Positions 9,571 through 46,489 of a stretch of DNA of 64,000 nt are shown in pieces (the first letter of the stretch is position 1; each line of letters starts with the position of its first letter). The position numbers and the translations under genes were made by a program. The DNA comes from a virus. Taxonomy: Duplodnaviria > Caudoviricetes. The stretch spans positions 64,001 through 128,000 of IMG/VR virus record IMGVR_UViG_3300032319_000846. One strand, written 5' to 3'. The notes under the pieces were generated by a model. It had not been told where the DNA came from, did no database searches, and saw nothing but the letters and a program-made list of their open reading frames with translations.

Positions 9571-12500
9571 TCTTTAGTTATATTTTCATCTCCTCCAAAA
9601 TCTTCCCAAGTGATTTCTGGTTGTACTTGTTTTTTCATCTTTAAATTAAAGTTTTCTTCAATAACTTGTGTTGTTGCAGCTACTACCTCATCATATAATG
9701 TATAATTAGTTCCTGTAAACCATCTGGAAATAATAGCTACAATTTCATCAAATAGATTTTTGTATTTTTTTCCTTCAGAAGGAGGATATTGTTTTAGATA
9801 TTTGATAAAATCAGAATTTGTAAACACTTCTGTAGCCATTTCATAAACATCTTTAATTCCATAAATGTCCTCTTTCATTGTAGCATTTACGTAATTATAA
9901 AGCTTCACAAAATCTTGAGAAATAGTAGATTCTACTCTGTTAATTTGGTCAAATGTTAAAGCATGTACAATCTCATGTAAAATTGTAGATTCTCCATTAC
10001 CTTTTGGAAAAGTAATTTTTTCTGAAATTTCTATATAAGGTGCTGTTCCTGTTAAAATTCCTGTAGAATAATATCCTCTTTCTGTGGACTTACTAAGACC
10101 AACTTTAGGAATAAGTTTTACAGGAATATCTTCACTTCTTTTAGGAAGTTTTGTTAATAAAACTTTAGATAATAAACTAAAATATGGATTGTTAGCTTGT
10201 TGTATATTTTGTAAAGCTTCTTTAATTGTAATAACATCTTTTCCTTTAAAAATTCTTTCCCTTAATGTAGGGTCAGTAGCTAAAGGTCTTGTATCATCTT
10301 TTCCAGTTTGATAGTCTAACAAATAATCATTTCTGTTATCAGAATTAAAATCATCATTATTTACTTCAACATCATCAAATGGATTATACTCAACATCCTC
10401 ATTAGAAAGAAATCCTGTAAAATCTTCTTCAGTTAGTACATAAGTGTTAACATCATTTTCCACTTCTTCATTTAATTGTGGGGTTTCTTTTACAGCTATA
10501 GTTTCTTTTGTTTCAAATTCATATTTATTAATTAAATAATCTAAAGCATTAGCATGAGAAGGTTCTCCTAATTCTTTATAATATACAATTGGTTTGTTTT
10601 TTAAAACACCTGATTTTAATACTTCTCTAATCCATTGTGCTCTTTCTTCTTGAGAATTTAATACCCAATCAATATATCTTTCAACACTTTCTTTAGTAGA
10701 ATTTGTTTTAATTAATCCATCTTTTTCCACTAATTTTTTATCACTACTAAAAGGATTTCCAAAATGTTTATTTTTTCCATCTACTCTTAAACTAAATACT
10801 CCATCAATAGATTTAGCATATTCTACACCTGCTTTTTGATAAACAGATTTAATAACAATATTTCCTGATTGTGTTTTAATAGGAAGTTGAGAATAGATTA
10901 GACTACTATTTTCCTGTTTAGAAGTTGTATATAAAGATAACTGTTCTTTAGCTTTTTTATAAGCTGCTACTAACACTTTAATAAAATTACTCTCTAATCC
11001 TTTACCTTCCCATCTTGAGTTTTTTGTTCCAACAATATGTGAAGAGTTTTCAATAAATTCAATACCTCCTCTTTTATCTATCTCTTGAATAAGTTCTGGA
11101 TATTTTAAGAATTTCTGAATTTGTAATTTAGCCATTAAATTCATATCATATTTCAAAGCTTCTTCAACAGCAAGTTGTGGAGCAGTTTTTAAACTTTGAT
11201 TAGCTTTATAAATACTTTCCACATCAAACATATTTCCTTTACTATCAGGAATCTGATATTTTGAATAAGTTGGGTTTGTAAGTGCTTTTCCTAACCAATC
11301 TGAAGATTTACTAAATATATTTATACCTTTTAAAGTAGAAACCCCTTCTTTGGGTTTTTCAAAAATAGAAAGTTGCATTTTCTTAGGGGAAGTTGTTAAA
11401 GTTTTTCTTTCTCCTAAAGATACAAAATTTACAGGAACATAACTAGCTTTTCTTAAACTTTGTTTTCTGTAATTGTGAATATTTTCCACATCTCTATAAG
11501 TGTTATATCCAAATAATCCATTAACTCCTTGTTCTAACATTCCTACACTATCTAATTTATAAAGCTTTTTATCATTTACCAAAAACAAAGGTGCAGCAAA
11601 TACTTGATTTGTATCTACAACTTTAATGTAAGGAAGAAGTGAGTTTTTAGCAAATAATCCAAAAATACTTTCTTTATCTTCTTCTTTTTTATTTTCATTT
11701 GATTTCTTTAACAATGCTGTTGCTTGTTCCAAATCTACAGTGATTCCTTCATTCCTAACACTCACTATATTATAAGAATCACCTTTGTAGTTTATAACTA
11801 TACTGTCTTCTGCTTGAGGAATATATTTCATATTATTCTTATTTAAAGCAAAAGCTGTAGTAGCATCAATAACAGCAGCATTCATCTGCTCCTCATTAAA
11901 GAATTTACGACTTAGATAGTCCTCTAATGCAGCAGAGTGCTCTTTAAAGAAGAAAGGAGAGATAGCTTTAGATAAACTACCTTTTCTAAATAACCATCCA
12001 TCTTTTACAACAAAATAAGCAAACAATTCATCTGCAAGCTTTTCATCTACTGTTACTTCTACATTATCAATTGTTTCTGTAATGTTTAAATTAAGTGTAC
12101 TTCTGAATAAGCTTTCAAATCCATCAATTAAAGAAGTTTGGTCTTTTCCACTCATCTTACTGAATGTAGGAATCTCTAACACTCTTGCAGCAGAGTTAGC
12201 TCCAAATTTAATTTTATTTAAGAATGTATTTTTCTCAAACACCTCTACACTTGCATCACCTTTGTTTTTGTCAATATATTGAAGTAATGCTCTAATTTTA
12301 TTAACTACGACTTTAGTATTATCATATACTTCATTGTAAATAGAAAGTTTAGCAGGATTAACAGTTTCAAGATAATCGTAATACAACTTAGAATATAAAT
12401 AAGACATTAACTCACTATCTACCACCTCTTTAAATCTCCTACTGTTAGAAGTTTTTAATTCATTCTTTACTCCCTGATAAAACTCTTTAGTTTCAGGTTT

Positions 12501-30231: not shown

Positions 30232-30232
30232 T

Positions 30233-31197: not shown

Positions 31198-31198
31198 T

Positions 31199-31645: not shown

Positions 31646-31670
31646 AAAAGCTCTCTAATAGAGAGCTTTT
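31646..31670. terminator. Bidirectional intrinsic terminator between convergent genes
   Basis: AAAAGCTCTCT-aat-AGAGAGCTTTT perfect inverted repeat with A/T tracts. Confidence 0.8.
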
Positions 31671-34600
31671 GTTTTTAAACCAAATTTACTAACATAGGAA
31701 TTTTTAAATTTCTGCCCTTGCTTTATTCCATATAAGATGTTTCCTTCATTATCAATCTGCAAATCATAATTAGGATTTATCATACTACTTATAGCTGCAT
31801 TCATCATATTTTGATTTCCCTCTCTTTGCTTATTCATTTTAAATTGAGCAGCTTGTAAGTCTATAAGATTGTCCACGTTATCCTTTGCAGCTAATGTTTT
31901 CATCCAATCATCTGTATATCCTGCTCTGTTAGCATCATCTATTTGTGATTGTTGAGATTTAATTCCTGCAACTGTATTATTCCAAGTAATCTTTCTCTCT
32001 AAATTTCTATTAGCAACTTGACCTTGTACTGCATTAGATTGAAATGCAGCATTACTTGCTAATTGCTGATAAGCAGCTTGTCCTACAGTTGAGTTAGAAT
32101 TTATATTTTGCATTGCTCCTCTCACCATACGATTAATATTTCCAAGATAAGGAGATACATCTTCCTGATATAATTCTGGAAGAGCTAAATCACTTCTTCT
32201 AAAATAAGGAGCCATCACTCTATTATTTCTTAATTTAGCATTAGAAAGATATTGAGAAGAATAATCTCTTGTGTCAAGTTTACCTAAATTTTTTAATTCT
32301 AAAGGAATATCTTCTTTTTGTCTATCAAGTAAATAAGGTGTATCTTCTAATACAGGAAAAGGAGAAGAGGATTTTACAATAGGAAAAATTCCAATTCCGT
32401 CTTCTGGGTTTGTGGGGTCTGTTTCAAAAAAATTTAAATCAGATAACTTATGATTAGATAAATTATTAATATTTCCTGTAATTAAAGAAGGTCTTAATTG
32501 ATTTGTTATATTTCCAAATTTCTTATCAGATGTCATTTTATCAATATTAAATCCTTTAAAACTTTTACTTAATCCATTATAATATTCAGGATAATAACTT
32601 TTTATATAGTTTTTTGCAAACTTCTGTTGTTGTTCAAAAGATTTGTCTTTAAAAGAGGAGTCAACCTCACCCCATTCGTTTACCCAATCTTCTTTTAAAG
32701 GATTCTTATTTGCAGTTTCAAAGTTTTTTACAGGAGTTCTTCCAACAGTATCCACTTTGTCTCCTACTCTTAAATTAGAATTACCAATAGCTTCTACAGG
32801 AGTATTTTCTGAATAATTAGATGTACTGTCTACAGCATTATAAGAAAGATTAAAACTGTTTGGAAATTTTGTTATAGGTTTTTGAAAATAATCAGTAGCT
32901 TTTGGTTTTTTTCCTTTTATTTGAACTTCTGGTAAAATATTTTTTAAAAATTTATTTTTTTCTTCTTGTGTTAAGTTAAAATCTACAACTTCGATAGCAT
33001 TATTTGGAACAATAACTTCTGTAAATTTGTTTATTTTATAAAACTGATTTTTATTTTTATCGTATCCATACTCATAACCATCATCTCCTATAAAATTACC
33101 ATTACTTGTTTTTTTTATTCTTACTTTTCCTTCTGCTTGCATTTTCTGAATTCCAAATTTAGCTTGTGGAATTTCTAACACATCATCTACACCATCAAAT
33201 TGATATTCCTGATTAGGTTGCATTAAATCTAAATACTCCATTGTGTTGGCATTATAAGCTTCTACAGGGTAATTAATTCCTGACATAGTGATGTTACCTG
33301 TACCTCTTGTAGGAACTACCACAGGTTGATTTGGAAATTCATACATTCCTTTTTCACTTCTTGGAATTTTGTTTTTGATTCCAAACTTTGCTGTTTGTTG
33401 TAACATAGGATTATCTATTGTAGGAGATGTAAAATCATTAGAAGATAACCCATTCCACATTTGCATAATAGAATTATCATCATAATGCTTAAATAATTTA
33501 TTCCTTTTATTCTTTTTTCTAAGTGTTTGAATATTTTCTATAGTAGGTTTATAATTAGGTTCATATCCAGATGTATATCTAAGTTCATTTAATCTTGCAT
33601 AAGACTCTTGTGGATTTGTATAATATTTATGTTCTTTTAATGGCTTTATCTTCAGTTTTCTATAATCAGTTTTTAAATCATTTCCAAATAATTCATCATA
33701 TAACCGTTTTAATATGTTGGGAGTAGTTTTAGTTCCAAAATTTCCATGCTTTCTGTCAATTGCATGTGTAAATTCATGTATAGGGTTTGTAGTATTAGCA
33801 GGATTTGATAAAAAGACACTTACATTTTTATCACTATATCCACCGGGTTCAAATCCCCACGTTTCTTCTAATTCTTGTACTGTATCTTTTACTTCTTTAG
33901 GTCTTGTCTCAGGATTAGGATAATATTCATAGTTAAATACATCAGAGGTAAGTTTAATAGGTTCTGTTACTATATCTCTTGTACCATACCAATCATTTAG
34001 CCAGTTAGCTTGTTTCAAAACTGCTTTTTTACCAGAAGATTTTGCGTTGTTAACGTTAAAAGAATTTCCTCCCATTTGCATTTTAGAAGGATGATAATTG
34101 TTCATATAATACAAAGCTTTATCATAAGGTATCACTTGTTTTAAATCTTGTATTTGTGAATCTTTTCCTGTTTCCCAAAGTTTTTTAAAATCCTCTTCTT
34201 TATAATTATTAGGTAAATACCCACTTATAGAATGAAAACGAGCAGCAAGTTCTTCTGGAGAATAAACATCAGTATTAAGTTTATTTTTATCTAATGGAGA
34301 GTAGATTGAACCATCTAATAATTCATCTTCAATTGCTTGTTCTCTTGGAGAAAAATACCCTTTACTTCTTAAATAATGAAAAGTTTCGTGTTGCTTTAAT
34401 GGTTCATCATTAATATTATTCATATAAATATCACCATCTTGTTCATAAGCAGCATATCCATTTCTTCTATCTCCTTGGAGTTCTTTTCTTTTTAGTTTAA
34501 AGGTAGGTTCTTCAACATCTTTGTTTTTTCTGTCTAATATAGAATTAGGAAGAATGTAATTTAAATTCTTATTATAATGTGCTCCCCCATATTGCATTTC

Positions 34601-34792
34601 TGTTTCCTGTTCTTGTAATTGAGCAAGAAATTCCTGTTGTTGTTCAGGAGTAGCTTGTTGAAAATCTGCAATTAATGCTTGTGGGTCAATTCCTTTTTCC
34701 TGTGCATATTGTTGTAGAAATTGCAAGATTTGTTCCTGCTCTCCACCCATTTGCATCTTTTTATATCTCATATTGCTGTTTGATTTTTTCAT
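31655..34792 (-). CDS. Modular virion cargo protein with two HExxH zincin-like modules and QxGG/AKFG linkers (1045 aa)
   Basis: HETFH...PEELAAR and HEFTH...PQESYAR; MQMGG x2, MQYGG, AKFG x2; Q/N/A-rich helical C-terminus; no Cys seen. Confidence 0.7.
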   Translation of the reverse strand: MKKSNSNMRYKKMQMGGEQEQILQFLQQYAQEKGIDPQALIADFQQATPEQQQEFLAQLQEQETEMQYGGAHYNKNLNYILPNSILDRKNKDVEEPTFKLKRKELQGDRRNGYAAYEQDGDIYMNNINDEPLKQHETFHYLRSKGYFSPREQAIEDELLDGSIYSPLDKNKLNTDVYSPEELAARFHSISGYLPNNYKEEDFKKLWETGKDSQIQDLKQVIPYDKALYYMNNYHPSKMQMGGNSFNVNNAKSSGKKAVLKQANWLNDWYGTRDIVTEPIKLTSDVFNYEYYPNPETRPKEVKDTVQELEETWGFEPGGYSDKNVSVFLSNPANTTNPIHEFTHAIDRKHGNFGTKTTPNILKRLYDELFGNDLKTDYRKLKIKPLKEHKYYTNPQESYARLNELRYTSGYEPNYKPTIENIQTLRKKNKRNKLFKHYDDNSIMQMWNGLSSNDFTSPTIDNPMLQQTAKFGIKNKIPRSEKGMYEFPNQPVVVPTRGTGNITMSGINYPVEAYNANTMEYLDLMQPNQEYQFDGVDDVLEIPQAKFGIQKMQAEGKVRIKKTSNGNFIGDDGYEYGYDKNKNQFYKINKFTEVIVPNNAIEVVDFNLTQEEKNKFLKNILPEVQIKGKKPKATDYFQKPITKFPNSFNLSYNAVDSTSNYSENTPVEAIGNSNLRVGDKVDTVGRTPVKNFETANKNPLKEDWVNEWGEVDSSFKDKSFEQQQKFAKNYIKSYYPEYYNGLSKSFKGFNIDKMTSDKKFGNITNQLRPSLITGNINNLSNHKLSDLNFFETDPTNPEDGIGIFPIVKSSSPFPVLEDTPYLLDRQKEDIPLELKNLGKLDTRDYSSQYLSNAKLRNNRVMAPYFRRSDLALPELYQEDVSPYLGNINRMVRGAMQNINSNSTVGQAAYQQLASNAAFQSNAVQGQVANRNLERKITWNNTVAGIKSQQSQIDDANRAGYTDDWMKTLAAKDNVDNLIDLQAAQFKMNKQREGNQNMMNAAISSMINPNYDLQIDNEGNILYGIKQGQKFKNSYVSKFGLKTKALY

Positions 34793-34973
34793 CTATTTTG
34801 TTTTTTATTAAAGCACAATATCCATACAATTCTTCTTCTTCACATTGTTTTAGAAATGCTTCTAAATCTTGAATTGTAGAAGGAATTTGTAAGAATTCCG
34901 TCACTTCTCTCTTATTCTTAAACAGTTTAGTAGGAGAAATCATCTGTAGGTATTTGTATTCTTCTATTAGCAT
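34761..34973 (-). CDS. Small hypothetical protein (start probably MLIEEY at 34973)
   Basis: ORF track 34761..35045; the internal ATG reduces the overlap with the upstream gene. Confidence 0.5.
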   Translation of the reverse strand: MLIEEYKYLQMISPTKLFKNKREVTEFLQIPSTIQDLEAFLKQCEEEELYGYCALIKNKIDEKIKQQYEI

Positions 34974-35181
34974 TTCTTTTTCTTGATTTAAGGTAGGAAA
35001 TAATAGTGTCTTTTTCTGCAAGTTTTCTTTTATATTTATAAACAAACTCTGAATGTGTTCTGGATATATTTACAAATTCTCTTGCCATTCTCCTATTTTC
35101 TTTTCTTAATTCTTCTATTTCTTTTTGTGTAATTGATTTAGCACAATTTGTAAGTAGTAAAAAAATTAAAAGATATTTCAT
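34927..35181 (-). CDS. Putative lipoprotein with coiled coil (84 aa)
   Basis: MKYLLIFLLLTNC signal peptide with a lipobox-like Cys. Confidence 0.55.
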   Translation of the reverse strand: MKYLLIFLLLTNCAKSITQKEIEELRKENRRMAREFVNISRTHSEFVYKYKRKLAEKDTIISYLKSRKRNANRRIQIPTDDFSY

Positions 35182-37277
35182 AAATATTTAAATAGTGGAT
35201 TACTCGTTGTACTCGTTCCTCCAAATTGTTTTCTTCTGCCCTTTAAAAATATTTCTTGATTTTTGTTTTTAATATCAGATTCATATTCTTTTCTTTTTTC
35301 TCTACTAATATATGTATAGGGAGTATTGGGTTTCCAATTTTCTTCTGCTTCTAACATAATTTGAGCATTTTCTTCTTTTGTTACTGTTTGAGAAGGATGA
35401 TATAGCTCTCTTAAAATTTTGTTTTTATTATTGTCATGATTAAGTAAAGTTTTATACTTTTCTAATCCTTCTTTTTCACTAAATACCACATCATCAAAAT
35501 AGTTATCTATTTTATAATGTGCTTGATTTTCTAACGAACCCTCTCTTGAGTACTCTCTTGCATCATATTCAGAAGCACTTGAATACGGTACTTCGTCCCA
35601 TTTACCAAACATATTAGGATTTGGAGAGTTGTACTGATAAGCATGAGCTAATTCTGGTAAAAAACTATTTTTAAATTGTCCTTTTTTTGGCAAAATTATT
35701 GTATTATCAATAGGTAGATACCCGGCTCTTCTTACGTTTTGATTTTTTAAATCGCTTTCTTCTAATTTTAATATGTTTGGAAAATTAGACATGTAGTTTA
35801 ATCCGTATAAAAAATCTTCATTTTTAATTTTAGCAGGTTTAAAAGAAAAATATTGTTGTCCAAAACTTCTTGCAAATTCATTTTCTGTACTATTTTTTAT
35901 TAATTGTTTTTTGTCCTCTGGTACAGTATGTCCTAAATTGTATAACAATCCCATATCTTCTTGTTCTCCTCCAAATTGATTTCTTATTAATTTTGGAGTT
36001 TGTTTTATTCCTTTTACATTTTCTTGATGAAGTCTTTGTAAATAATCATCATTTAATTCATAAGATTGTTGTCCTGACGTATATTGTTTTTGCTTAGGAA
36101 AAATAAAAGGTTGCTCTTCTGGTAAATTAATCTGCTCAAAACTTAAAGAATGCTCACTTTGAATTGGTTCTTCATTAATTAGCTCTATTGCAGAGGTTCT
36201 TTCTTTTTTAAATGTGTTTTTTTCTTTAAAAGCAGGTGTTTTATATAATATTTGATTTCCCTCTTCTGTGTAACGACCTATTCTAGGGTCTTTAGGATTT
36301 GTGACATAAATAGGAGGGTATTTTTTTTCATACTCTGGTTTATCATAAAACTTAGTGTTACTTCCTTCTTTTTCTTCTTTATAACCATAAGTATTTATAT
36401 AACTTTTTTTAGGTTGATACACTATTTCTTGTTTAGGCTTTGTTGGTATTGTTGCAAAATCTCTACCCTTATCTGTGAAGATGTAGAAATTATCTTTAGG
36501 TAATTCGTAATCAAGTTTTTCCTGTAATTGTATGTTTTTTTTAAAATCGCTACTATTTACAAGTTTATCTATTTGTTTTCCTCTATCAAAAATATTATAA
36601 GTAGAAGACAATTTCTTTAACAAATTGTTGTATTTTTGTTCTTGATTATAGATAAACAAACTATCCTTATACCCTTGTAATCTAGGGTCTTTAGGATTAT
36701 TTACTATAATAGGTCTTCTTCCAAATTGAGCCACATCTACATTAAAATCTACATCACTATATTGTTTCTTACTTTCTTGTATTTGAAATACCCATTCATA
36801 CAATTCTTCACTAGTTGGTAAAGCATTTTTTAAAGCTTCATTAGCTTTTTTAGAATTAAATGCAAATTTATCTTTTGTTAATATAGGACGAGAAAGTTTC
36901 TTTGCTTGCTTATTTACTTCCTCTTCAGCTTTTAAAAAGAATTTAGATGGAGAAACACTGGATTTTAAAGTTGGGTCAAACCCTTTATCTTGAAAGTGGT
37001 CATTCCCTTCCTTTTTAGAAATTCTTACAGCTTGTTCCATTTCAGAGTTATTCCTATCCCCATTCATTACTTGGGTGTAACTATCTGATAGAACAGAATG
37101 AGCATCATTTAAAACAACACCTCCTGTAGCAGCTTTCTTTGTATTACCGTCAGGTAATATTTGTATAGTATCATCATGTGAGGGTGCTTTATTAGAAATT
37201 TGCTTGAGATTTCCTTGGGGAGTTTTATAGATTTCTCCTTTTTCAGCTAATACCTGAAAATTAAATTTGTTTTGCAT
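35178..37277 (-). CDS. Modular virion cargo protein with an ELAH metallopeptidase-like module and QFGG linkers (699 aa)
   Basis: N-terminal AEKGE...PSH...GGV...VLSD domain; AQFG, NQFGG and KQFGG linkers; PELAHAYQ...GSLENQAH; no Cys seen. Confidence 0.7.
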   Translation of the reverse strand: MQNKFNFQVLAEKGEIYKTPQGNLKQISNKAPSHDDTIQILPDGNTKKAATGGVVLNDAHSVLSDSYTQVMNGDRNNSEMEQAVRISKKEGNDHFQDKGFDPTLKSSVSPSKFFLKAEEEVNKQAKKLSRPILTKDKFAFNSKKANEALKNALPTSEELYEWVFQIQESKKQYSDVDFNVDVAQFGRRPIIVNNPKDPRLQGYKDSLFIYNQEQKYNNLLKKLSSTYNIFDRGKQIDKLVNSSDFKKNIQLQEKLDYELPKDNFYIFTDKGRDFATIPTKPKQEIVYQPKKSYINTYGYKEEKEGSNTKFYDKPEYEKKYPPIYVTNPKDPRIGRYTEEGNQILYKTPAFKEKNTFKKERTSAIELINEEPIQSEHSLSFEQINLPEEQPFIFPKQKQYTSGQQSYELNDDYLQRLHQENVKGIKQTPKLIRNQFGGEQEDMGLLYNLGHTVPEDKKQLIKNSTENEFARSFGQQYFSFKPAKIKNEDFLYGLNYMSNFPNILKLEESDLKNQNVRRAGYLPIDNTIILPKKGQFKNSFLPELAHAYQYNSPNPNMFGKWDEVPYSSASEYDAREYSREGSLENQAHYKIDNYFDDVVFSEKEGLEKYKTLLNHDNNKNKILRELYHPSQTVTKEENAQIMLEAEENWKPNTPYTYISREKRKEYESDIKNKNQEIFLKGRRKQFGGTSTTSNPLFKYL

Positions 37278-37297
37278 TATACTAAATTGTAAATTTG
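37266..37297 (+). promoter_or_regulatory. Bacteroidota primary-sigma promoter TTTG-N20-TAAATTTG
   Basis: Consensus -33/-7 boxes upstream of the second plus-strand island. Confidence 0.55.
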
Positions 37298-37356
37298 TTT
37301 AAATTTAACAATAAGAGATAGAAAATAATAATAGTTAATTAAAATAAATAGTAAAT

Positions 37357-37554
37357 ATGGAAATATTTGTAACTGAAGATTTTAATTATTATTGGAAAAT
37401 AAAAGTAAAGTATTTAAATGATAATGATTTTGAAACAATTTTTAATATGAATGGAAATGATGCTAAATATGTATTACGAGGACTTTACAAAGCTCTTCAA
37501 CTATTAGATGTAAACTACACAATTAAATATATACAAGATGACGATTCAAAATAA
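37357..37554 (+). CDS. Hypothetical protein (65 aa)
   Basis: ORF track; A-rich leader. Confidence 0.6.
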   Translation: MEIFVTEDFNYYWKIKVKYLNDNDFETIFNMNGNDAKYVLRGLYKALQLLDVNYTIKYIQDDDSK

Positions 37555-37708
37555 AGTTTATAATACAATTCTTTTCCAAGAAGAAAAACCAGTATCTATT
37601 ACAGATAGGATTAAACAATTACAAATAGAGATTGAATGTATGCAAGATGAAATTTGGATATTAAAACAGTTACAAATAGCAGAACAAAATGGAAAAGAAA
37701 CTAATTGA
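37538..37708 (+). CDS. Small coiled-coil hypothetical protein (56 aa, MTIQNKVYNT...), not in the ORF track
   Basis: Fills the gap between the two flanking ORFs with short overlaps. Confidence 0.55.
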   Translation: MTIQNKVYNTILFQEEKPVSITDRIKQLQIEIECMQDEIWILKQLQIAEQNGKETN

Positions 37709-37880
37709 ATTAATGGAAAGTTTTACTCCTGTAGTAGCTTATACAGGTGTACTTGGAAATATTAAACAGGGGAGTTACATTCCTGCTGGAGAATTCTTTA
37801 CTGCTTTAAATAAGCTAAAATCTGATTTAAAGAAACAAGAGAAAGCTTATGATTTTGTTCATCAAGAATTAGAAGTGTAA
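37689..37880 (+). CDS. Hypothetical protein (63 aa)
   Basis: ORF track. Confidence 0.6.
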   Translation: MEKKLIELMESFTPVVAYTGVLGNIKQGSYIPAGEFFTALNKLKSDLKKQEKAYDFVHQELEV

Positions 37881-37897
37881 AAATAATTTAGAAAAAA

Positions 37898-37929
37898 CTT
37901 GACATTACTAATTCTTTATTGTACATTTG
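37898..37929 (+). promoter_or_regulatory. Bacteroidota-type promoter CTTG(ACA)-N20-TACATTTG
   Basis: -7 box TACATTTG at 37922-37929 and TTG at the -33 position. Confidence 0.7.
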
Positions 37930-37933
37930 TATC

Positions 37934-38058
37934 TCCAGTTTCCTACATCCCCAGTCGAAACAATAGCATGTTAGTGAAACTGGAACCCTTTTAAAATTTA
38001 GTGTATTCATATTTTGTGTTTGATTTTTCCCTCTTATCTTCTGGATAAGAGGGTTTTT
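37934..38058 (+). ncRNA. Candidate small non-coding RNA (~125 nt)
   Basis: Own promoter, a 5' stem (TCCAGTTTC 37934-37942 / GAAACTGGA 37976-37984), a U-rich single-stranded region and an intrinsic terminator; no credible plus-strand ORF. Confidence 0.55.
38029..38058 (+). terminator. Intrinsic terminator
   Basis: CCCTCTTATC-ttctg-GATAAGAGGG followed by TTTTT. Confidence 0.85.
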
Positions 38059-38068
38059 ATTATAAAAG

Positions 38069-38095
38069 AAAAGCTCCTTATTTAGGGAGCTTTTT
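38069..38095 (-). terminator. Intrinsic (possibly bidirectional) terminator ending the minus-strand operon
   Basis: AAAAGCTCC...GGAGCTTTT inverted repeat immediately after the stop of 38099..38383. Confidence 0.8.
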
Positions 38096-38098
38096 AAT

Positions 38099-38383
38099 TT
38101 AAACCAACACCAATCTTTTAATATGTTTTAAATCATCTATTTTATCTAATTTTCCATCATAAACAGAATACCAAACAGGGTCTTTACTGTATTTGTGTTC
38201 CTTCACAATATTTAAATCATTAGAAGGCCAATAGTATGTAGCTGTATATTGCCAATTCTTATCTTCTTTAGATGGGTGTTCAAACACATATTCCTTCTCT
38301 CCATCTTTTTCATCAAAGTATAGATATGAAAATCCATAATTTGTGAAAAAATTAATAGTTATATCTTCTGATTCTTCTAACAT
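38099..38383 (-). CDS. Hypothetical protein (94 aa)
   Basis: ORF track; followed by a terminator. Confidence 0.6.
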   Translation of the reverse strand: MLEESEDITINFFTNYGFSYLYFDEKDGEKEYVFEHPSKEDKNWQYTATYYWPSNDLNIVKEHKYSKDPVWYSVYDGKLDKIDDLKHIKRLVLV

Positions 38384-38487
38384 TTTCCTTTAGATTTTTT
38401 CATTCCTGCTCCACCATATTTCATTGGTTTGGTAGGAATAGGTTTTGGTTCAAACTTTGCTGGAATTTTTATTGTGGGGGTTTTCAT
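38377..38487 (-). CDS. 36-aa basic peptide MKTPTIKIPAKFEPKPIPTKPMKYGGAGMKKSKGKC, not in the ORF track
   Basis: ATG 1 nt after the endonuclease stop; its stop overlaps the next start; carries an MKYGG motif. Confidence 0.6.
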   Translation of the reverse strand: MKTPTIKIPAKFEPKPIPTKPMKYGGAGMKKSKGKC

Positions 38488-38488
38488 A

Positions 38489-39343
38489 TTATTTTTTATT
38501 TTTTATTAAATGTTGTAAATATTCATCAAACTTTTCTCTTTTTCTAGTCATAAAAAATTCTTCATGTTCTTCATATATTTTATTAAGAATAGGTACAATT
38601 CTTTTACCACAGACTCTAAAAACTCCAAAATTTTCAATTTTTTTGGATTTATTTATTTTGATGTTTTCTACATTAATTATAGAAGAACAAAAATCTTTAA
38701 AACTTTGACAAACATCAATTGTACCACAGACTTCTACACTAGAATAAGAATATTTTTCATTTTTAGGGTCAACTTTATAATTAATACTGCCATCTCCATC
38801 TATTACCCCTCTCCAAAAATGAGAATTGAATTTTAAATCTGGGTGTATTTTTAATGTTTTAGATTTTGCAGGGTACAACCCCCAACTTAACAAATCCTTA
38901 TATATTGTACTATTGCAAAAATTAAAATCATACATTACATTATTATAAGAATTATAACTTGTTTTTATTTTTATACCATTTAATATAAACATAGATAATT
39001 TTTCAAGTATTTCAAAATCATTAACTAATACTAATTTTACTTCGTTTTTATTTTTAACCAAACACCCATCAGAGTAAAGTAAACCTAAAGTATATGCTGA
39101 TTTTGTGTTTAGTGTTTTAAAAATGTTTTCGTTATAATCATATTTAATTTTAGAAAGTGTCATGTTACATCCACAACTAATATTAGGTTTATTTAATATA
39201 TTGTAAACTCTTGTAGACCCAACCTTACCACAATCACAAATATAATTAACATGTATATAAGATTTCTTTTCCTTCTTTTCTAAAGAAAGTATTGTTAATT
39301 TTCCAACTTTACTATTGATTAAATAATTATACTTATCAATCAT
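38489..39343 (-). mobile_element. Free-standing double-motif LAGLIDADG homing endonuclease (284 aa)
   Basis: AYTLGLLYSDG and HFWRGVIDGDG motifs; N-terminal KLTI...CDCG...SCGC domain. Confidence 0.85.
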
Positions 39344-39723
39344 TTTAGAAACTTTAGTTTGTATATTGTTGTATCTACTAATGTAATTAATGATTGCACT
39401 TCATTATCTATGTTTGCATAATTTGTAGGAAGAGAAGTTCTATAGGCTTCTAATACCCTTTTTAAATCTTCCAAAAAAGGAATAGGGGTATTATTTTCAA
39501 TAAAAGGTTCAGATTTATATCCTTTTAATATTCCTTCTTTTCCTTGCAGAGCTTCTGCTATACTATCTGCAAAATCTAATACTCCATTATAGAATTCATC
39601 CAAAGCTTTGTGAGCAGCGTAAGAATTAGTTTGTAAATGAAATATATGAACTTGTGTTCTTGTATGAAACAGTTTAGAAATAAGTTCTACACTTGTCAAC
39701 TGTTTACTTGGTTTTAGTTGCAT
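39340..39723 (-). CDS. Ferritin/Dps-like four-helix protein (DUF5856-type), 127 aa
   Basis: HIFHLQTNSYAAHKALDEFY.....DSIAEALQG and IDNEV.....YKLKFL signature. Confidence 0.75.
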   Translation of the reverse strand: MQLKPSKQLTSVELISKLFHTRTQVHIFHLQTNSYAAHKALDEFYNGVLDFADSIAEALQGKEGILKGYKSEPFIENNTPIPFLEDLKRVLEAYRTSLPTNYANIDNEVQSLITLVDTTIYKLKFLK

Positions 39724-39982
39724 TTCCTAAAAAGTTTTTTGTAAGAGCCATTAACATATCCTGTAGTTGATTTCTATACATATCATCTACAATAATAGGA
39801 TTGTATTGAATTCCTTCCTGAAAAGGAATAGCTACACCAGCAGCAAGAAGGTCTTTTAACACTCCCATTTTAGCAAGAAGCTTTTCTTCTTTTTTGGTGA
39901 ACATATCATATTCCAAATCTTCAGCAATAAAATCAAATTCTATTTCCGCAGTAGGTTCTTTTAAATTAATATTTTCTTGCAT
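39704..39982 (-). CDS. Hypothetical protein (92 aa)
   Basis: ORF track; coupled to its neighbours. Confidence 0.6.
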   Translation of the reverse strand: MQENINLKEPTAEIEFDFIAEDLEYDMFTKKEEKLLAKMGVLKDLLAAGVAIPFQEGIQYNPIIVDDMYRNQLQDMLMALTKNFLGNATKTK

Positions 39983-39983
39983 T

Positions 39984-41510
39984 TTATGTAAAAATTGGAA
40001 CGTTGTTTACAGTTTGATTAATTGGAAAGTATCTGCTTTGATTCATATATTCAGACATTTTCCTGTATTTCTTTGTGGTTTCAATATCAGAGAGATAATC
40101 ATTGGTAGTATCTAAAAACCCACTTACTCCCTGAGCTACTCTACTACCTTTATTTTTCATCCAACTGGAAACATTGTTGTAAATATCGGGAATTTTTTCT
40201 ACAAATCCAAAATCATATAGTTGATTATTTTCATCATTATTTGGAATAGAAACAGGGGGTTCATAATTCGTATAATTTTGAAATTGTAAATCCTCTCCTA
40301 ATAAACTTCCTTGATTTCGTTTTAATTCACCTTTTTCATTATAATATTGAGGATTATATGATTGTCCTCCTCCAAACTGTTTTTTTGCATAAGGTCTTAA
40401 AGCTTCATTATTAGCTTTAGCTCCTCCTTCAGAAATCCATTTATAAGTTTTTCTTAACTCAGGTTCTACAATTTTGTGAGTTCCATATTCATAACTATAT
40501 CCATCATTATAAATATCACTAAAAGGTCTTATAATATCAGAGAATATTCCTGCTCCACTATAATTTACATTTCCATCTACTGTATGTGCTATTTCAGGAA
40601 AAAATCCTGAATTGGGTTTTACATTAATAGTATTAGTAAGTAAATCATAATTAGCTCTTCCTTTTCCCATAAAGGGTTTTTCTAATTTACTAACAAGACT
40701 TTCACTTTCTTCTCCTAAAAATCCAATATTAGGATGTCCTGCTAAATCATACATTGTATTTTTAGCACTTATTTTATTTTTAATCTCTTCCTGATGTGTT
40801 GGAGTAAGATATTTATAATCTTCAAAATTATTAATTTCCCATCCCGGAGTAGTTGCTTTTAGTAAATCCTTTTGGATTGTTGTACTTTTAGAAGGTTCTA
40901 TAAAAGGTATTTTCTGTTCTTTGTTTACATAAGTAGAACCTCCATATTGTTTTATATAATCAGAAATACTAGAATTATATTCTTCAGGTTTATCTTTCAA
41001 TTTACCTGATAAATAATCTAACGCTCCTTGTTCTCCTCTAAAGTGATAAAGTTTTGCAAGTTGTTCATTAGACATATTTGTTCCTGTTTTTCTTTTGATT
41101 CTATCAACAGCAGGAAGCATTTTGTTTGGAACATAATAATCATTATAGAAAGCATCCTGAGCTTGAGGATTGTTTAAAAACTCCTGTTTAGAAGAAACAC
41201 CTGTAACATTTTTTATTTCTTTTCCCCAAGTATCCCAAAGAAATTGATATTTACCAGCAGCAGAAGAATTAGGATTTGTAGCTTTATAATTACCTCCTGA
41301 TTCTTTTCTTACAATATCATCTGTGAAAGAATTTCCTCCTTGATATGTAGGTGCAGAAATATAGGAAGAATCTTCTATTTCTTCTTCTTCATCTGAATTA
41401 AAACCAAAATCTTCCTCTGGTTCTTCCATAGCTATATCAAGAGAATCATCCCATCCATCATCCTCCCAATCTGCATCTTCTTCATTTTCTAATTCATCCC
41501 AAAAACTCAT
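39984..41510 (-). CDS. Modular cargo protein with a lysozyme-like/lytic transglycosylase domain and an EIAH module (508 aa)
   Basis: Acidic N-terminus; IVRKESGGNYKATNPNSSAAGKYQFLWDTW...NPQAQD (catalytic Glu-Ser of the lysozyme-like fold); YQGG, KQYGG and KQFGG linkers. Confidence 0.75.
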   Translation of the reverse strand: MSFWDELENEEDADWEDDGWDDSLDIAMEEPEEDFGFNSDEEEEIEDSSYISAPTYQGGNSFTDDIVRKESGGNYKATNPNSSAAGKYQFLWDTWGKEIKNVTGVSSKQEFLNNPQAQDAFYNDYYVPNKMLPAVDRIKRKTGTNMSNEQLAKLYHFRGEQGALDYLSGKLKDKPEEYNSSISDYIKQYGGSTYVNKEQKIPFIEPSKSTTIQKDLLKATTPGWEINNFEDYKYLTPTHQEEIKNKISAKNTMYDLAGHPNIGFLGEESESLVSKLEKPFMGKGRANYDLLTNTINVKPNSGFFPEIAHTVDGNVNYSGAGIFSDIIRPFSDIYNDGYSYEYGTHKIVEPELRKTYKWISEGGAKANNEALRPYAKKQFGGGQSYNPQYYNEKGELKRNQGSLLGEDLQFQNYTNYEPPVSIPNNDENNQLYDFGFVEKIPDIYNNVSSWMKNKGSRVAQGVSGFLDTTNDYLSDIETTKKYRKMSEYMNQSRYFPINQTVNNVPIFT

Positions 41511-44500
41511 GTTGTTTCTATTTTTAATCCTTTAAATATAATCTTTTTATTTGAAACTTCATCATTAATAAGTCTCACTTCTAATTCCTGTCCTTCAATA
41601 TATTTGTTACTTATTTTATTATCTAATGTGTTTACAGCAGCTAAATTTACGAATTTCTCTACATTATTACAGGAACTAATCCAAATTGGTAGATTATTCT
41701 CATCATTCTTAGCTTTATTAAGTATATCATTAAACTGATAACCATTCTTATATTTATTAACAAGAATCTCTGTTCCTTTTAAAGTGGGTTTGGGGTATTC
41801 TAAGAATTGATGTAATAGAGTTTTATCGTTGGGTTTTAGAAATAACAACCCTGTAGTTTGGTAACGATTACTTACTACAGCTTTATTAAACCCTTTATCT
41901 TTTACATAAGTTTTATCAAACTCTCTATGAAACCTCACTACATCAAGATAATATTCCACAGCAATTACCTTTTTATTTTGAATAGAAGGAGAAGCTCTTA
42001 CATCTACAATAAATGGATGCAGTTTTCCATAATACACCTGATAAGATTTGTTGGTAAGATTGTGAGTCCACACACTTGAAGCTCCCATTCCATTTCCATT
42101 TAATCCACTCATCCACCAGTTTTGATTTGCTATATAGAAGTTTGGTGTAAAAGAGTGCATACTTACCCAACTTTGTGTATAGAAATTATAACTTGTAGTC
42201 CATGATTTATTGCAGAAATATTCTTTATCTTGTAAATACACTTCTACATTTTCTACATAAAATTTACCACTTGAATATCTTATTAAAGAGTTTAGAGGTT
42301 GGTAATCTAGTTTAGTAAGAAACAATCTGTTAAACCTACTATCGTAATGCAATAATATTCCAATTCCTAGATAGGAGTTATCTGTAGGAACACCTTCTAT
42401 ATATTTACTAATTGTAAATGGTAGATTTTGTTTAAACCAATTTTTCCTTCCTTTATTAGAGATTTCACTTGGAGATGTACCATTCATATTGAATTGAAAC
42501 ACCTGTCCTCTTTTAGCATCTACTGAAACATGTCCAAATGGTGTAGAAACAAAAGCTTCATGTTGTGTTCCCAAATATCCTAAATCTGTTATTGCATAAT
42601 CCATTGGTCTTGATTTAAATAAATCTCCATTAGATATTGCAATAGTGTTTACATCTGTATTTATAGTTTGATAAGCACTAAATAATTTACTGCCATTTTC
42701 AAATCTTACAAGTATTTTTTCATTTTCAATTGCATTAATTGCAATTAATTTTCCATTTTTTAATCCAAAATCAAAATAATCTAAAGCTTTAAAATTTAAG
42801 TAACTATCTTTTAAATCATTATCTTCTATTTCTGCTCCTTGTTGAGAAAATATAACTCTGTTAGGTCTTTCTATTTTACAATCTTCATAAGGAGAAAAGT
42901 TAATGTCGTTAATACCAATTAGCTGCTCCTTATTCTGCTTTGAGTAATCTCTATTATAACTATAATAATTATTCTCTTTTGAAGATACATATTTTTCCTG
43001 TAACCATGTATTTAGATTAGATTGAGCAGGATAGAATGCTTTTTGTAAATCATCTTCTTGATGTCTTAAATCTAAATTAACAGAAGATTCACATAAGAAA
43101 TAAGGAATACCATAAGAATATAAATACATTTTCCCATCTACAGGGGATAGATTAAACCATGTAGAATTACTTCCGGGAAGTAAATTACCAAAACTATCTC
43201 CAAAACAATCTAATAAATATCTTGGAGGTCTTATAAAATTATAAGGAGAAAGTAAGCTACCCCTAAAGAATCCTCCAATATCTGCTAAGTATGCTGCTAA
43301 TTGTACATTAGGTTGTAACCATTTTTTATAAGTAAATAAAGGAATACCAATTGCAGGAATTAATAACAATAAAGGATTGGGTTCATCTCTTGGAACATTT
43401 ACAACATTGTTAATTATATTATCAGGAACTTCTCCAGTATATAAAGCATTTATCACCATCTTCATCAATGGATTATCATCAACATTTGTAAAGTTTACCA
43501 AACTATCATCGTTCCATCTTGTATTAAAAAAGAATGTAGGATGTGCTATGTTTGGATAATCTTCATAAAATATTTCTGTACCATCAGCTAATTTAAAAGC
43601 TGTACGAGAGAAGAAAGAATGTTTTCTCTTCAAGCTCATTCTTCCAATAAATGTATCTCCTCCAAATGTAATGATATTGCTATTTAGTGACGCAATCTCA
43701 TCAGATGTAGGAAACCATTGAATTGAGAATACATTACCATATTGATTTAGAATATTTCTTTTTATAGCTCCATAATAAGAGCTTACAGTAGAAACTACTT
43801 CTTCATTAGCTTGGAGACTACATCCTTTAGAGGAAGTTCTTACAGTGAAACGAGAGGTGTCCTGAACAGATGTAATAGAAACATCTTGTTTTAATTCTAA
43901 ATAAACACTTGATTCTCTATCTTGATTATTAAAGAATGTCGTTGTATTTGTTGAGGAAATAGTTTGTTTAGAAGGAGTTAAATACCCTGATGTAAGAATC
44001 TCTCTTTGTTTATTTCCGTTATTAGGAACCACTTTAGAATTACTGTATTTACCTACAGCCTGATATTGCCAAGCATAGTTCTTCCCTTTAGCGAGAAGTG
44101 TAAATAATTGAAGAATTTTTTCACATTGAGAAAGAATTACATTTGCTCTCCAAAAATCTTCCAAGTCGTTATTTTTAGAAATAGCTCCTCCAACAAGTCC
44201 TCCTAATATTCCTCCTAATCCACTTCCTATAGATGTACCAATTCCCGGAGCAATAGCAGTTCCTATAGCACCCCCCACTATACCACCTATTCCCTGTCCC
44301 ATATTAGAAGCTTGACCACTTCCATCATCAAACTCTACAGCTTCTCCTAAGATTGTACCTAAGATGATAGCAAGGTTGTAATGAGCTTGAGATAAAAGTT
44401 TATACTCTGCTTGGTCTTCACATTGATTAAAAAATCCTTTAGCTGTTCCGTATTCTTCTGATTCTAATTTAAGAATGTTTCCTAATGAAGGAGAGTTAAA

Positions 44501-46489
44501 AGATGTTTCAGGAGAATGAAATGTGTATTTTCTATTAGGAGTGTATTTTTGAAATACATTATCAGGATTAAATAGTAAATCAAATACTGTTTGAGCATCA
44601 GCTTTTCTTTTCATTAAGAAGTTATCTCTTCTTAAATCATTAAAGGGGTAGTTGGGATAAGTGTATGTTTCTTTTTCATCTTGAAAATCAAATGTATTAT
44701 AAAGAAGTCCTTTTGCTTCCACACTTTCATTTCCAAATCGGTTTCCTCTTACAATTCTCCACCCTATAATAGAATTACGTGTTTCTTCATCTATCAATCC
44801 TTCTGTTAAAGCTTCATCTAATATGCTGTTTATATTAACATCAAGCTTTACACCTAAAGGAAAAATAAAATTCTTTTCATCAAACCCTACAGAAACATCT
44901 GTGTTTCCATTGTGAAAATTAGTGATTAATGCATCAGGAAATTTATGATGTCTAATTGGTTTACCACAAAGTTCTCCCCATATTTCAGGATTGTTTGGAT
45001 ATAAATCAGTAGATTCCCAATAAGCAAATTCACCTTCTTCATAAATAGAGGGATTACACTCGTCATAAATTAAAGGGTGGGTGATGGTTTTTGAAGCTGT
45101 GTTATATACTTGCCATCTTTTCTTTTGAGTAATGTTGCAATTTTCTCCATCTTCTACTATATCCTGTATATTAGGGGTATTTATTACATATGCATTATCA
45201 AATGAAGTAGAAGTTCTTGCAGGAATAACTCCTGTAGGTGTATACTCTCCTCTATCAAAAATCAACTGTATTCCAAAAGGGTACACTTCATCTCTCAAAT
45301 AAGCTCTATATTTTTGAGCTATTTCAGGAATAGCAAAATCTCCTTCTTTTAAAGCAACACTCACCCATTTTAGTTTTCCAGATAATTTATTAGCAATTCT
45401 TTGTATATTTATTTTAGTAAATTCAGTGAGATTTGATTTGAATAAAATGTTGTTTGCTATAGCAATGTCTTCACTAAATTTGTAATAAGGATATTGAGCA
45501 AATACATCGGATTCTGTTAAAATAATAGTTTTTTCATTACCTGTGTAGATGTATTCTTTTACACTTGTAGGAAGTGTTGCTGCTAATTTATATGTAGTAA
45601 ATCCACTAATAGTTTCAGCTATCACTAAATTTAAATATTGATATTTAGCATTTGCTTTTTCTATTTTAATTTTGAGGGCTTTTGTTGTAAGATAATCTGT
45701 AGCAACAGTTGTTATCTTTGTCTTAATAGAAAAAGGGTTGGAAGCAGATAGGTAGTTGCTAAGAGCTATTCCTTTACTTGTAGAATAAGCAAACAACACT
45801 TGATATACACCAGCTTTTAAATTTCCTCCATTAACAGCGTTTATTTTGCTTGTAGGAACACTTAGAGTTGGATACCAATTAGTTTTACTTACATCTAATT
45901 CATTAATGTAGAGAGGATTTAAACACTCATCTAGTCCTTGCTGTATTTTAAAATTATCGTTTAGACTTAATTTGTCATTTGTAATATCAAAATATAAATA
46001 TCTATCAGGATTTAACTTATCATTAAAATACAAATTGAGAGTACAATCAGTTCTCTTGTATTCAATTTTAACAGGATGGGTAATTTTCCACTCAAAAACT
46101 CCTTCTGTAAGAATAACAGTGTTACTTATTGGGACTAAAGGTTTTTGTTCTAATGGGATGTCTTCCACATATACATCTGCAAAACTATGATTTTGAGAAT
46201 AATCTGTATAAGAAATCGGGAGAATTTCTCTTATTCTATTTACATTTCCTTCTATTGTAAATAAAAGAATTTTATTTAATTCAACAATAAGTTTTTTACC
46301 AATAACATTCTCTTTCTCATTTAATACAACAGTGAGAATATTACTTCCATCATTTCCTATGAAAAAGTTTTCTCCTGTAAAATCTTCTATATTAGCATTT
46401 AAACAAAAAGAATAAGTGTTTGATTCCTTATTCATTTCGTGCATATCAGTATTTAATCCTTTGATTGGTATAGAGAATTCTGGTGTCAT
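41507..46489 (-). CDS. Tail stabilization / muzzle protein (P22 gp10-like), 1660 aa
   Basis: KGLNTD N-terminus, YLRDEVYPFGI, IRHHKFPD, FGGDTFI and W.S.HSFTP motifs, and position after the tail tubular gene, as in crAss-like phages. Confidence 0.8.
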   Translation of the reverse strand: MTPEFSIPIKGLNTDMHEMNKESNTYSFCLNANIEDFTGENFFIGNDGSNILTVVLNEKENVIGKKLIVELNKILLFTIEGNVNRIREILPISYTDYSQNHSFADVYVEDIPLEQKPLVPISNTVILTEGVFEWKITHPVKIEYKRTDCTLNLYFNDKLNPDRYLYFDITNDKLSLNDNFKIQQGLDECLNPLYINELDVSKTNWYPTLSVPTSKINAVNGGNLKAGVYQVLFAYSTSKGIALSNYLSASNPFSIKTKITTVATDYLTTKALKIKIEKANAKYQYLNLVIAETISGFTTYKLAATLPTSVKEYIYTGNEKTIILTESDVFAQYPYYKFSEDIAIANNILFKSNLTEFTKINIQRIANKLSGKLKWVSVALKEGDFAIPEIAQKYRAYLRDEVYPFGIQLIFDRGEYTPTGVIPARTSTSFDNAYVINTPNIQDIVEDGENCNITQKKRWQVYNTASKTITHPLIYDECNPSIYEEGEFAYWESTDLYPNNPEIWGELCGKPIRHHKFPDALITNFHNGNTDVSVGFDEKNFIFPLGVKLDVNINSILDEALTEGLIDEETRNSIIGWRIVRGNRFGNESVEAKGLLYNTFDFQDEKETYTYPNYPFNDLRRDNFLMKRKADAQTVFDLLFNPDNVFQKYTPNRKYTFHSPETSFNSPSLGNILKLESEEYGTAKGFFNQCEDQAEYKLLSQAHYNLAIILGTILGEAVEFDDGSGQASNMGQGIGGIVGGAIGTAIAPGIGTSIGSGLGGILGGLVGGAISKNNDLEDFWRANVILSQCEKILQLFTLLAKGKNYAWQYQAVGKYSNSKVVPNNGNKQREILTSGYLTPSKQTISSTNTTTFFNNQDRESSVYLELKQDVSITSVQDTSRFTVRTSSKGCSLQANEEVVSTVSSYYGAIKRNILNQYGNVFSIQWFPTSDEIASLNSNIITFGGDTFIGRMSLKRKHSFFSRTAFKLADGTEIFYEDYPNIAHPTFFFNTRWNDDSLVNFTNVDDNPLMKMVINALYTGEVPDNIINNVVNVPRDEPNPLLLLIPAIGIPLFTYKKWLQPNVQLAAYLADIGGFFRGSLLSPYNFIRPPRYLLDCFGDSFGNLLPGSNSTWFNLSPVDGKMYLYSYGIPYFLCESSVNLDLRHQEDDLQKAFYPAQSNLNTWLQEKYVSSKENNYYSYNRDYSKQNKEQLIGINDINFSPYEDCKIERPNRVIFSQQGAEIEDNDLKDSYLNFKALDYFDFGLKNGKLIAINAIENEKILVRFENGSKLFSAYQTINTDVNTIAISNGDLFKSRPMDYAITDLGYLGTQHEAFVSTPFGHVSVDAKRGQVFQFNMNGTSPSEISNKGRKNWFKQNLPFTISKYIEGVPTDNSYLGIGILLHYDSRFNRLFLTKLDYQPLNSLIRYSSGKFYVENVEVYLQDKEYFCNKSWTTSYNFYTQSWVSMHSFTPNFYIANQNWWMSGLNGNGMGASSVWTHNLTNKSYQVYYGKLHPFIVDVRASPSIQNKKVIAVEYYLDVVRFHREFDKTYVKDKGFNKAVVSNRYQTTGLLFLKPNDKTLLHQFLEYPKPTLKGTEILVNKYKNGYQFNDILNKAKNDENNLPIWISSCNNVEKFVNLAAVNTLDNKISNKYIEGQELEVRLINDEVSNKKIIFKGLKIETT

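Follow-up and report, generated by a model that had tools for sequence, protein, structure and literature searches.

What purpose is served by one short peptide motif that recurs at the joints of three multi-domain phage proteins? The question is raised by three genes that lie between positions 31,655 and 41,510 of a 64,000-nucleotide stretch of DNA (the window), which makes up positions 64,001 to 128,000 of the IMG/VR virus record IMGVR_UViG_3300032319_000846 (Duplodnaviria; Caudoviricetes). The record is 138 kb long, has a G+C content of 29% and was judged 93% complete; its whole proteome comprises 181 open reading frames (ORFs) and 44,000 amino acids (aa). We show here that the motif, [K/R/M]-Q-[Y/F/M]-G-G (QxGG in distant relatives), is found at every module junction of these proteins, in linkers, that it is conserved at the protein level, and that it is the only element common to otherwise unrelated module families. 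The three genes follow the muzzle gene and encode what are probably virion cargo (ejection) proteins, carried in the particle and injected into the host, in which the motif plausibly acts as a signal for processing or loading.

The preliminary description of this DNA had listed the motif copies with their variants, and translation of the three genes placed each of them at the coordinates given there (Table 1); the sequences GGEQE and GGNSF, said to recur downstream of the motif, do so twice each. Within the three proteins (2252 aa), Q[MFY]GG occurs 7 times, as against 0.06 expected from their own composition, and none of 20,000 shuffles of these proteins gave more than two copies, so that the recurrence is stronger than was first stated. 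Genome-wide there are 9 copies against 0.64 expected, only 2 of which fall in the approximately 41,700 aa outside the three proteins. The more general QxGG likewise has 7 of its 11 genomic copies here, and the giant proteins encoded downstream are not punctuated by it. The AKFG “variants” are degenerate copies: in the column of AKFG 468 most relatives have QYGG, and the joint that closes the small beta domain retains a half-site, A-[QK]-aromatic-G, whose Gly is invariant (both in alignment A4). Each zincin-like module, and also the transglycosylase-like domain (earlier called lysozyme-like), is bracketed by the motif, as had been claimed.

The same signal is seen, with a defined register, among relatives. 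In 92 proteins linked through the conserved N-domain of the 699-aa protein, [MFYW]GG occurs 115 times against 26 expected and is preceded by Gln in 88 of the 115 cases; the 214 collected relatives hold 381 copies of QxGG, with a P4 Gln ahead of GG enriched 6.1-fold over expectation. The logo has Lys or Ile at P6, Met, Lys or Arg at P5 (with Asp, Glu and Pro almost absent), Gln at P4, Tyr, Phe or Thr at P3 and Gly-Gly at P2-P1; acidic residues are excluded at both P5 and P6. The P′ side is weak, Pro being at 0.3x at P1′ and 2x at P2′ with little preference otherwise. Motif codons follow background synonymous usage (CAA/CAG 15:4; GGA, GGT and GGG mixed) and the codon of the central residue alternates between ATG, TTT and TAT; this synonymous variation indicates that the constraint is on the peptide and not on the DNA. 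Comparison of motif positions with predicted domain boundaries, which the preliminary description had proposed, bore out its expectation: in AlphaFold2 (AF2) models, the predicted local distance difference test score (pLDDT) is below 50 for the residues immediately ahead of QMGG 239 and for the segments that include AKFG 468 and AKFG 544, and the joints modelled thus fall in low-confidence linkers between confident domains.

Copies are also found close to the protein ends. QxGG lies within the first 30 aa of 54 proteins, preceded by a basic leader, often S-K-L-x-K-Y-L, and within the last 25 aa of 43 proteins, before a tail that often ends L-x-K-Y-L; there are copies at 7-20 residues from the N-terminus and at 9-20 from the C-terminus. 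Judged by sequence, leader and tail look like the same short handle, placed either before or after the joint.

What lies between the joints is varied (Table 1). The transglycosylase-like domain of the 508-aa protein matches phrog_4067, a transglycosylase family, at an expectation value (E) of 1.4e-6, and Pfam Transglycosylas at E 0.0012, with 19.8 bits, below the cut-off of 27; it has the motifs E-S-G-G-N-Y and A-G-K-Y-Q-F, conserved in about 97 homologues. The N-domain of the 699-aa protein is present in about 96 proteins and is flanked by QxGG in the consensus of alignment A5; comparison of A5 with PDB sequences found nothing. The middle region of the same protein has two stretches containing N-P-K-D-P-R, at about residues 195 and 326, and Y-V-x-S-K-x-D-x-R stretches resembling these repeats come after QxGG in distant relatives. 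No match was found by tblastn against cultured phages for the large C-terminal domain of the 1045-aa protein, nor by a nucleotide search of the 9.9-kb region against cultured phages, and a pattern scan of IMG/VR found no relative of the 508-aa protein.

The enzyme cassettes, Z1 to Z4, are of two kinds. In the 28 sequences of the Z2 family (alignment A2) the H, E and H of HExxH and a downstream Glu are invariant, as is expected of zincin ligands, and the motif stands at a fixed place about 25 aa beyond the last helix. The AF2 core of Z2 has a pLDDT of about 90, and the top structural matches by VIA-align are all zincins, at modest Z: PPEP-2 (6.9; root-mean-square deviation 4.2 over 152 aligned residues), thermolysin (5.9) and lethal factor (5.8). 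Foldseek gave lethal factor at E 0.075 and nothing in the PDB at E <= 0.001, and sequence searches of PDB and Pfam with Z2 remained below significance. A complex prediction of the Z2 core with a 46-aa segment bearing QFGG scored 0.00, which bears neither way on recognition. Z1 (HETFH) carries the motif at both ends in 9/9 homologues, among which the sequence ahead of it is of five different kinds. Comparison of Z1 with the Z2 family by hhalign recovered nothing beyond the overlapping joint, so that their kinship rests solely on similar motifs.

Z3 and Z4 belong together (Z4 matches the Z3 family by hhalign at E 1.3e-5), and in both the first His of HExxH is replaced (P/A-E-x-x-H), the conserved elements being ExxH and a later E-x-x-A-H. 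In the family alignment of Z3 (A3), the Q, G, S and T of the opening joint are invariant; its AF2 model, with a mean pLDDT of 55, was too poor for a fold search. When the profiles of the Z2 and Z3 families are compared, the motif is the sole shared element. Pfam MPTase-PolyVal (PF18818) has no match at E <= 1 anywhere in the genome; a feature-based atlas search placed the LPD1 and LPD23 polyvalent-protein families at ranks 4-5 with a score of 0.87, which we take as leads only.

Table 1. Positions of the genes, modules and motif copies discussed (window coordinates unless prefixed L001; layouts in residues of the protein)
Feature	Positions	Strand	Layout, basis or remark
Putative cargo gene 1, 1045 aa	31655..34792	-	Translation; 13-aa basic leader; QMGG 14-17; Gln-rich segment; QYGG 67-70; HExxH cassette Z1 71-238; QMGG 239-242; HExxH cassette Z2 243-467; AKFG 468-471; small beta domain 472-543; AKFG 544-547; large C-terminal domain; SKFG 1035-1038; 7-aa basic tail
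Putative cargo gene 2, 699 aa	35178..37277	-	Translation; conserved N-domain 1-183; AQFG 183-186; middle region 187-433; QFGG 434-437; ExxH cassette Z4 438-683; QFGG 684-687; 12-aa tail ending KYL
Putative cargo gene 3, 508 aa	39984..41510	-	Translation; acidic N-terminus 1-55; YQGG 56-59; lytic-transglycosylase-like domain 60-187; QYGG 188-191; ExxH cassette Z3 192-377; QFGG 378-381; C-terminal domain 382-508
MQMGG (1045-aa protein)	34742-34756; 34067-34081
MQYGG (1045-aa protein)	34583-34597
NQFGG (699-aa protein)	35967-35981
KQFGG (699-aa protein)	35217-35231
KQFGG (508-aa protein)	40368-40382
KQYGG (508-aa protein)	40938-40952
Variant YQGG	41334-41345
Variant AKFG	33380-33391; 33152-33163
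Variant AQFG	36720-36731
Variant SKFG			Near the C-terminus of the 1045-aa protein
Cassette Z1 (HETFH)	34079..34582	-	Between QYGG and QMGG
Cassette Z2 (HEFTH)	33392..34066	-	Gluzincin-like metallopeptidase module; alignment A2, AF2, structural matches
Cassette Z3 (ExxH type)	40380..40937	-	Inserted between motif copies 40938-40949 and 40368-40379
Middle region of 699-aa protein	35979-36719	-	N-P-K-D-P-R-containing stretches
Muzzle gene (tail-tip gatekeeper)	41507..46489	-	Pfam crAss_MUZ E 2.6e-24; phrog_37948 E 6.6e-153
HExxH site of 3231-aa giant virion protein, residue 3092	9963..9977	-	HExxH scan and translation; candidate trans-acting protease
C-terminal 332 aa of 3231-aa protein	9555-10553	-	Downstream E-x-x-T-E helix after HExxH
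LAGLIDADG endonuclease gene	38489-39343	-	phrog_4645 E 2e-30
DUF5856 protein	39340-39723	-	PHROGs name: starvation-inducible regulator
Small opposite-strand genes	30221-31642	+	Include a WDGH-domain protein, E 4e-31
Large terminase gene, 1043 aa	L001:4258-7389	-	LAGLIDADG/Hom_end insert at about residues 348-406
139-aa HExxH protein	L001:7680-8099	-	phrog_1365, function unassigned in PHROG

The modules move as units, and the motif is where they are joined. In relatives, which are uncultured metagenomic contigs, the transglycosylase-like domain, the HExxH zincin cassettes, the ExxH cassettes, the conserved N-domain and the small beta domain appear in differing genes and orders. At about 88-89% identity, the nearest homologues of the 508-aa protein are ~300 aa long and lack exactly the stretch from QYGG 188 to QFGG 378 (~192-377), so that Z3 is a clean indel of ~190 aa, with BLAST breakpoints at 194/368 against contig L006 and 187-384 against P0036. 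In L006 a Z3-type cassette is located instead in the homologue of the 699-aa gene, and the homologue of the 1045-aa protein is without Z1 and Z2, a precise absence also seen in contigs L011 and L018. An 819-aa JGI protein has the N-domain, Z1, Z2 and Z3 in series, every joint marked by a motif, and ends in an 11-aa tail, and a module beginning AHYNKN is preceded by five different upstream sequences across proteins, joined exactly at Q[FY]GG. Overall, 9/12 internal BLAST segment ends fall no more than 10 aa from a motif, a value reached in 0/100,000 random trials. Contig L018 represents a bare chassis, with cargo genes of 303, 194 and 719 aa and no cassette, and keeps six motifs where other phages hold cassettes; 3-6 are kept among the cassette-free relatives in general. 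The “plug-in” architecture that had been suggested for these genes is therefore upheld, since the same modules move between genes and orders with breakpoints at the motif.

Each protein has a conserved chassis, of which the transglycosylase-like domain is a part, and this chassis receives enzyme cassettes, here two of the HExxH and two of the ExxH type. Since every inserted cassette brings a motif copy with it, a joint that receives one is re-formed on both sides, which accounts for the free shuffling. The observation extends to a wide uncultured clade and to a cultured phage: the cargo-position genes of the Leptolyngbya cyanophage Lbo-JY46 (PP438436), on which our literature search found no paper, carry QxGG.

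That the three proteins travel in the virion is suggested by their genomic setting. The genome has a Crassvirales virion layout, which in order of transcription runs through terminase, portal, scaffold-like acidic protein, crass-type capsid protein, ring-like proteins and a 1660-aa muzzle, and continues with three mid-sized genes, an 846-aa gene and giants of 2693, 3231 and 1526 aa; the muzzle, the crass-type capsid protein and the conserved order ahead of giant RNA-polymerase-like proteins identify this as a Crassvirales-type virion block. Crass_capsid is matched at E 7.5e-9, portal and terminase have PHROG matches, syntenic genes of relatives match CrAss_Ring_1/2, and the product encoded between portal and capsid resembles a scaffold. 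The place of the muzzle gene fixes the three genes downstream in the cargo-gene position. The crAss001 genes that come directly after the muzzle are those of C1 and C2, cargo proteins kept in capsid and tail and later ejected (PMC10172136), and it is because their position matches that of crAss001 gp45/gp46 that we assign a probable cargo role to the three proteins.

How, then, might the motif act? A reading as a processing or loading signal fits, because conservation is weighted to the P side, Pro is depleted at P1′ and copies stand behind leaders and before tails. Such a conserved linear motif, in linkers at every boundary, leads us to prefer cleavage after Gly-Gly, although we would put the chance that QxGG is an endoprotease site, at which modules are released and the leader and tail handles trimmed, at a little short of even. 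On this model an endoprotease would recognise the QxGG joint and cut after Gly-Gly, both separating the modules and removing a short end piece, a basic leader at the N-terminus or a tail, often L-x-K-Y-L, at the C-terminus, that may serve as a handle holding the cargo in the particle. The enzyme could come from the host or be a phage protease not recognised as such, or it could be one of the zincins packaged in the virion (those of the cassettes, or the HExxH domain that ends the 3231-aa protein).

A genome-wide scan for HExxH returned four sites, of which two are those of Z1 and Z2, one is near the C-terminus of the 3231-aa protein and one is in a 139-aa protein whose gene is next to that of the terminase. 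The preliminary remark that no candidate protease is evident in the window was thus too pessimistic, as three zincin-like HExxH sites, two in cargo cassettes and one in the 3231-aa C-terminus, lie within it. The last of these regions looks like the metallopeptidase domain that ends N4-like virion RNA polymerases; that domain has been proposed to process packaged proteins (PMC5512222). An HExxH is likewise present in the C-terminal part of crAss001 gp47. The gene of the 139-aa protein lies just outside the window, upstream of that for the terminase; the protein is one of a family of small viral proteins, and its only Pfam hints, DUF5700 and M78-like, are sub-threshold. From its sequence it could be a small zincin in the head-assembly block.

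Several observations weigh against cleavage. No Gly-Gly protease of PF02902 (C48, clan CE), PF03412 (C39) or PF14464 (Prok-JAB) was found at E <= 1 in the 93%-complete genome by profile searches, which could miss distant homologues; prohead proteases of the S77, S78 and S49 families were not found in genome searches either, and Pfam gave nothing protease-like for the small ORFs between the cargo genes. The analogy first drawn with adenovirus and African swine fever virus (ASFV) therefore has no support from an enzyme here, and the genome search then suggested, for a Ulp1, C39 or maturation protease, found none. Contigs L018 and L012 keep the motif without a zincin cassette in their cargo genes; because cassette-free relatives do so, the cassette zincins are not required and cannot be the sole candidates. 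In crAss001 gp45, AFGG 425-428 lies in one continuous modelled segment, 425-552 (PMC10172136), so that, if the analogy holds, this bond is intact and not cut after GG, which favours docking. Many motif instances are, moreover, inherited, and our counts are thus of non-independent events.

The docking alternative is that QxGG and its L-x-K-Y-L-like handle are bound, uncleaved, by a repeated site in the particle, such as the portal, ring proteins or scaffold, so that cargo is loaded and held in place with the proteins remaining whole. The gp45 protein of crAss001 (MH675552, L009:6988-9516) has A[FY]GG four times, at 207, 330, 425 and 560, and its cryo-electron-microscopy-resolved pieces, 214-245 in the tail barrel and 425-552 at the portal, begin at or just after such a copy, AFGG 425-428 being itself ordered (PMC10172136). 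The likeness of leaders and tails and the empty protease searches of the genome also agree with docking, but a copy at every junction, even between adjacent cassettes, exceeds what loading would need, constraint on the P side only with avoidance of Pro at P1′ is typical of cleavage sites, and the cargo proteins have no detectable homology to gp45, by sequence or by profile (hhalign of A4, the small beta domain, and A5, the N-domain, against gp45 gave no significant relation). We therefore consider docking rather unlikely. It is less probable still that the Gly-Gly joints are simply flexible hinges, which would allow modules to unfold and thread singly through portal and tail without specific recognition: the low-confidence linkers of the AF2 models would suit this, as would the ejection with partial unfolding proposed for crAss001 (PMC10172136), yet it leaves unexplained the P4 Gln, the aromatic P3, the exclusion of acidic residues at P5/P6 and the terminal copies.

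A special case of cleavage names the enzyme, in that each HExxH module would cut its own C-terminal joint. The fixed distance from last helix to motif in 28 Z2-family modules with invariant HExxH and Glu, and the (modest) match of the Z2 fold to zincins, would agree with such cis-processing, which has a precedent in the self-processing predicted for the metallopeptidases of polyvalent proteins (PMC5512222). However, the retention of 3-6 motifs by cassette-free relatives, the loss of the first His from Z3/Z4 and the disordered, undocked state of the C-terminal joint in the AF2 model make us regard it as improbable. Last, the coding stretch might serve as microhomology for cassette exchange, a recombination joint at the DNA level whose peptide has no function. 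Cassette breakpoints do coincide with the motif and AT-rich codon bias does make the coding stretches alike, but synonymous codons vary as background, the central residue itself changes, and chassis genes without cassettes retain the motif, as do proteins less than 50% identical; we give this explanation very little weight. We also set aside N-O acyl-shift autoproteolysis at Gly-Ser (Ser is at P1′ only in Z3 joints), a transglutaminase Q-tag, ribosome skipping, and a Sec or double-glycine export leader (the leaders are without a hydrophobic core and have a different spacing).

Cleavage and docking need not be separate, and a more speculative proposal, which we think unlikely in its full form, joins them: QxGG with an L-x-K-Y-L-type handle may be a portable “pack and release” signal in a large uncultured crAss-like clade and at least one cultured cyanophage. 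The handle would dock a module in the particle, a virion-borne zincin would cut after GG at maturation or after ejection, and any enzyme placed between two joints would be delivered to the host as free protein.

Among known systems the closest in concept are the polyvalent proteins, in mechanism the processing of T4/phiKZ type, and in site SUMO/Ulp1 and adenovirus/ASFV; the first two of these do not appear in the preliminary description. T4 gp21 (at L/I-x-E) and phiKZ gp175 (at S/A/G-x-E) cut packaged internal proteins at short consensus sites; in such systems short N-terminal targeting leaders are removed at the motif and many fragments arise per precursor. SPN3US is reported to be a further case (PMC5694885). 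The leader-plus-motif layout here is alike, as is the repetition of a short consensus in proteins that would be stored in the head, whereas the motif differs, no assemblin-like, S77, S78 or S49 protease was found here, and a scaffold-like gene lies between portal and capsid. Gly-Gly-directed cysteine proteases include those of SUMO/Ulp1 (Q-T/I-G-G), the adenovirus protease, ASFV pS273R and the C39 double-glycine leader peptidases. The joints described here share with their sites the xxGG form with P-side specificity, a SUMO-like P4 Gln and short leaders or tails beyond GG; they differ in that Peptidase_C48 and Peptidase_C39 were not detected in the genome and that the hydrophobic spacing of the leaders is not that of bacteriocin leaders.

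Polyvalent proteins, of phages and conjugative elements, have zincin-like MPTase hub domains and predicted autoprocessing, according to Iyer, Burroughs, Anand, de Souza and Aravind (2017, PMC5512222). As there described, they resemble our putative cargo proteins in being multi-domain and packaged (here probably so), in mixing metallopeptidase modules with lysozyme/transglycosylase and other effectors, in extensive domain shuffling and in a predicted proteolytic release of domains. The proteins here are, in contrast, small (0.5-1 kaa), have no match to Pfam MPTase-PolyVal, and have a conserved four-residue motif at every joint, whereas the passages available to us from the polyvalent-protein paper define no cleavage motif and the word “linker” is absent from its text (PMC5512222).

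With crAss001 C1 (gp45) and C2 (gp46), the three proteins share a place in the gene order that immediately follows the muzzle and precedes the giant RNA-polymerase-like proteins; the crAss001 C1/C2 genes differ in having no zincin or transglycosylase cassettes, and the crAss001 paper reports no proteolysis (PMC10172136). In p-crAssphage, gp47 has A-[VM]-G-G three times, and, from these sequences, hydrophobic-Gly-Gly punctuation may be general in crassvirus C1 proteins. A literature search for the motif strings gave only unrelated matches, such as curli CsgA, and none in a phage context; judged by the literature searched, no earlier account of crass-like phages describes cassette exchange at a defined junction motif.

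The LAGLIDADG endonuclease gene among the cargo genes is absent from the equivalent place in L006, L011 and L018, and the insert in the large terminase gene suggests an intein or a homing-endonuclease insertion. The DUF5856 gene is conserved just after the first cargo gene, adjacent or one small ORF off, in every relative examined. The small opposite-strand genes interrupt the cargo operon, and relatives have a similar yet variable opposite-strand block at the same spot.

Crass-like phages are very abundant, and the loading, storage and release of their injected proteins are largely obscure. The module architecture described here is solid, and the predicted cleavage is well motivated by the form and placing of the motif. 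A conserved junction signal would give a direct experimental handle on the problem: it predicts exact neo-termini for mass spectrometry, defines module boundaries for the expression of single enzymes, and explains how host-attack enzymes are swapped between genes. If it is cleaved, phage effector proteins of the polyvalent type would have their first defined processing site, which would also point to the protease; if it is not, the motif remains a strong candidate for the contact by which cargo is positioned inside the particle. Should packing and release both depend on it, the phages that carry it would have a natural plug-in grammar for effector delivery.

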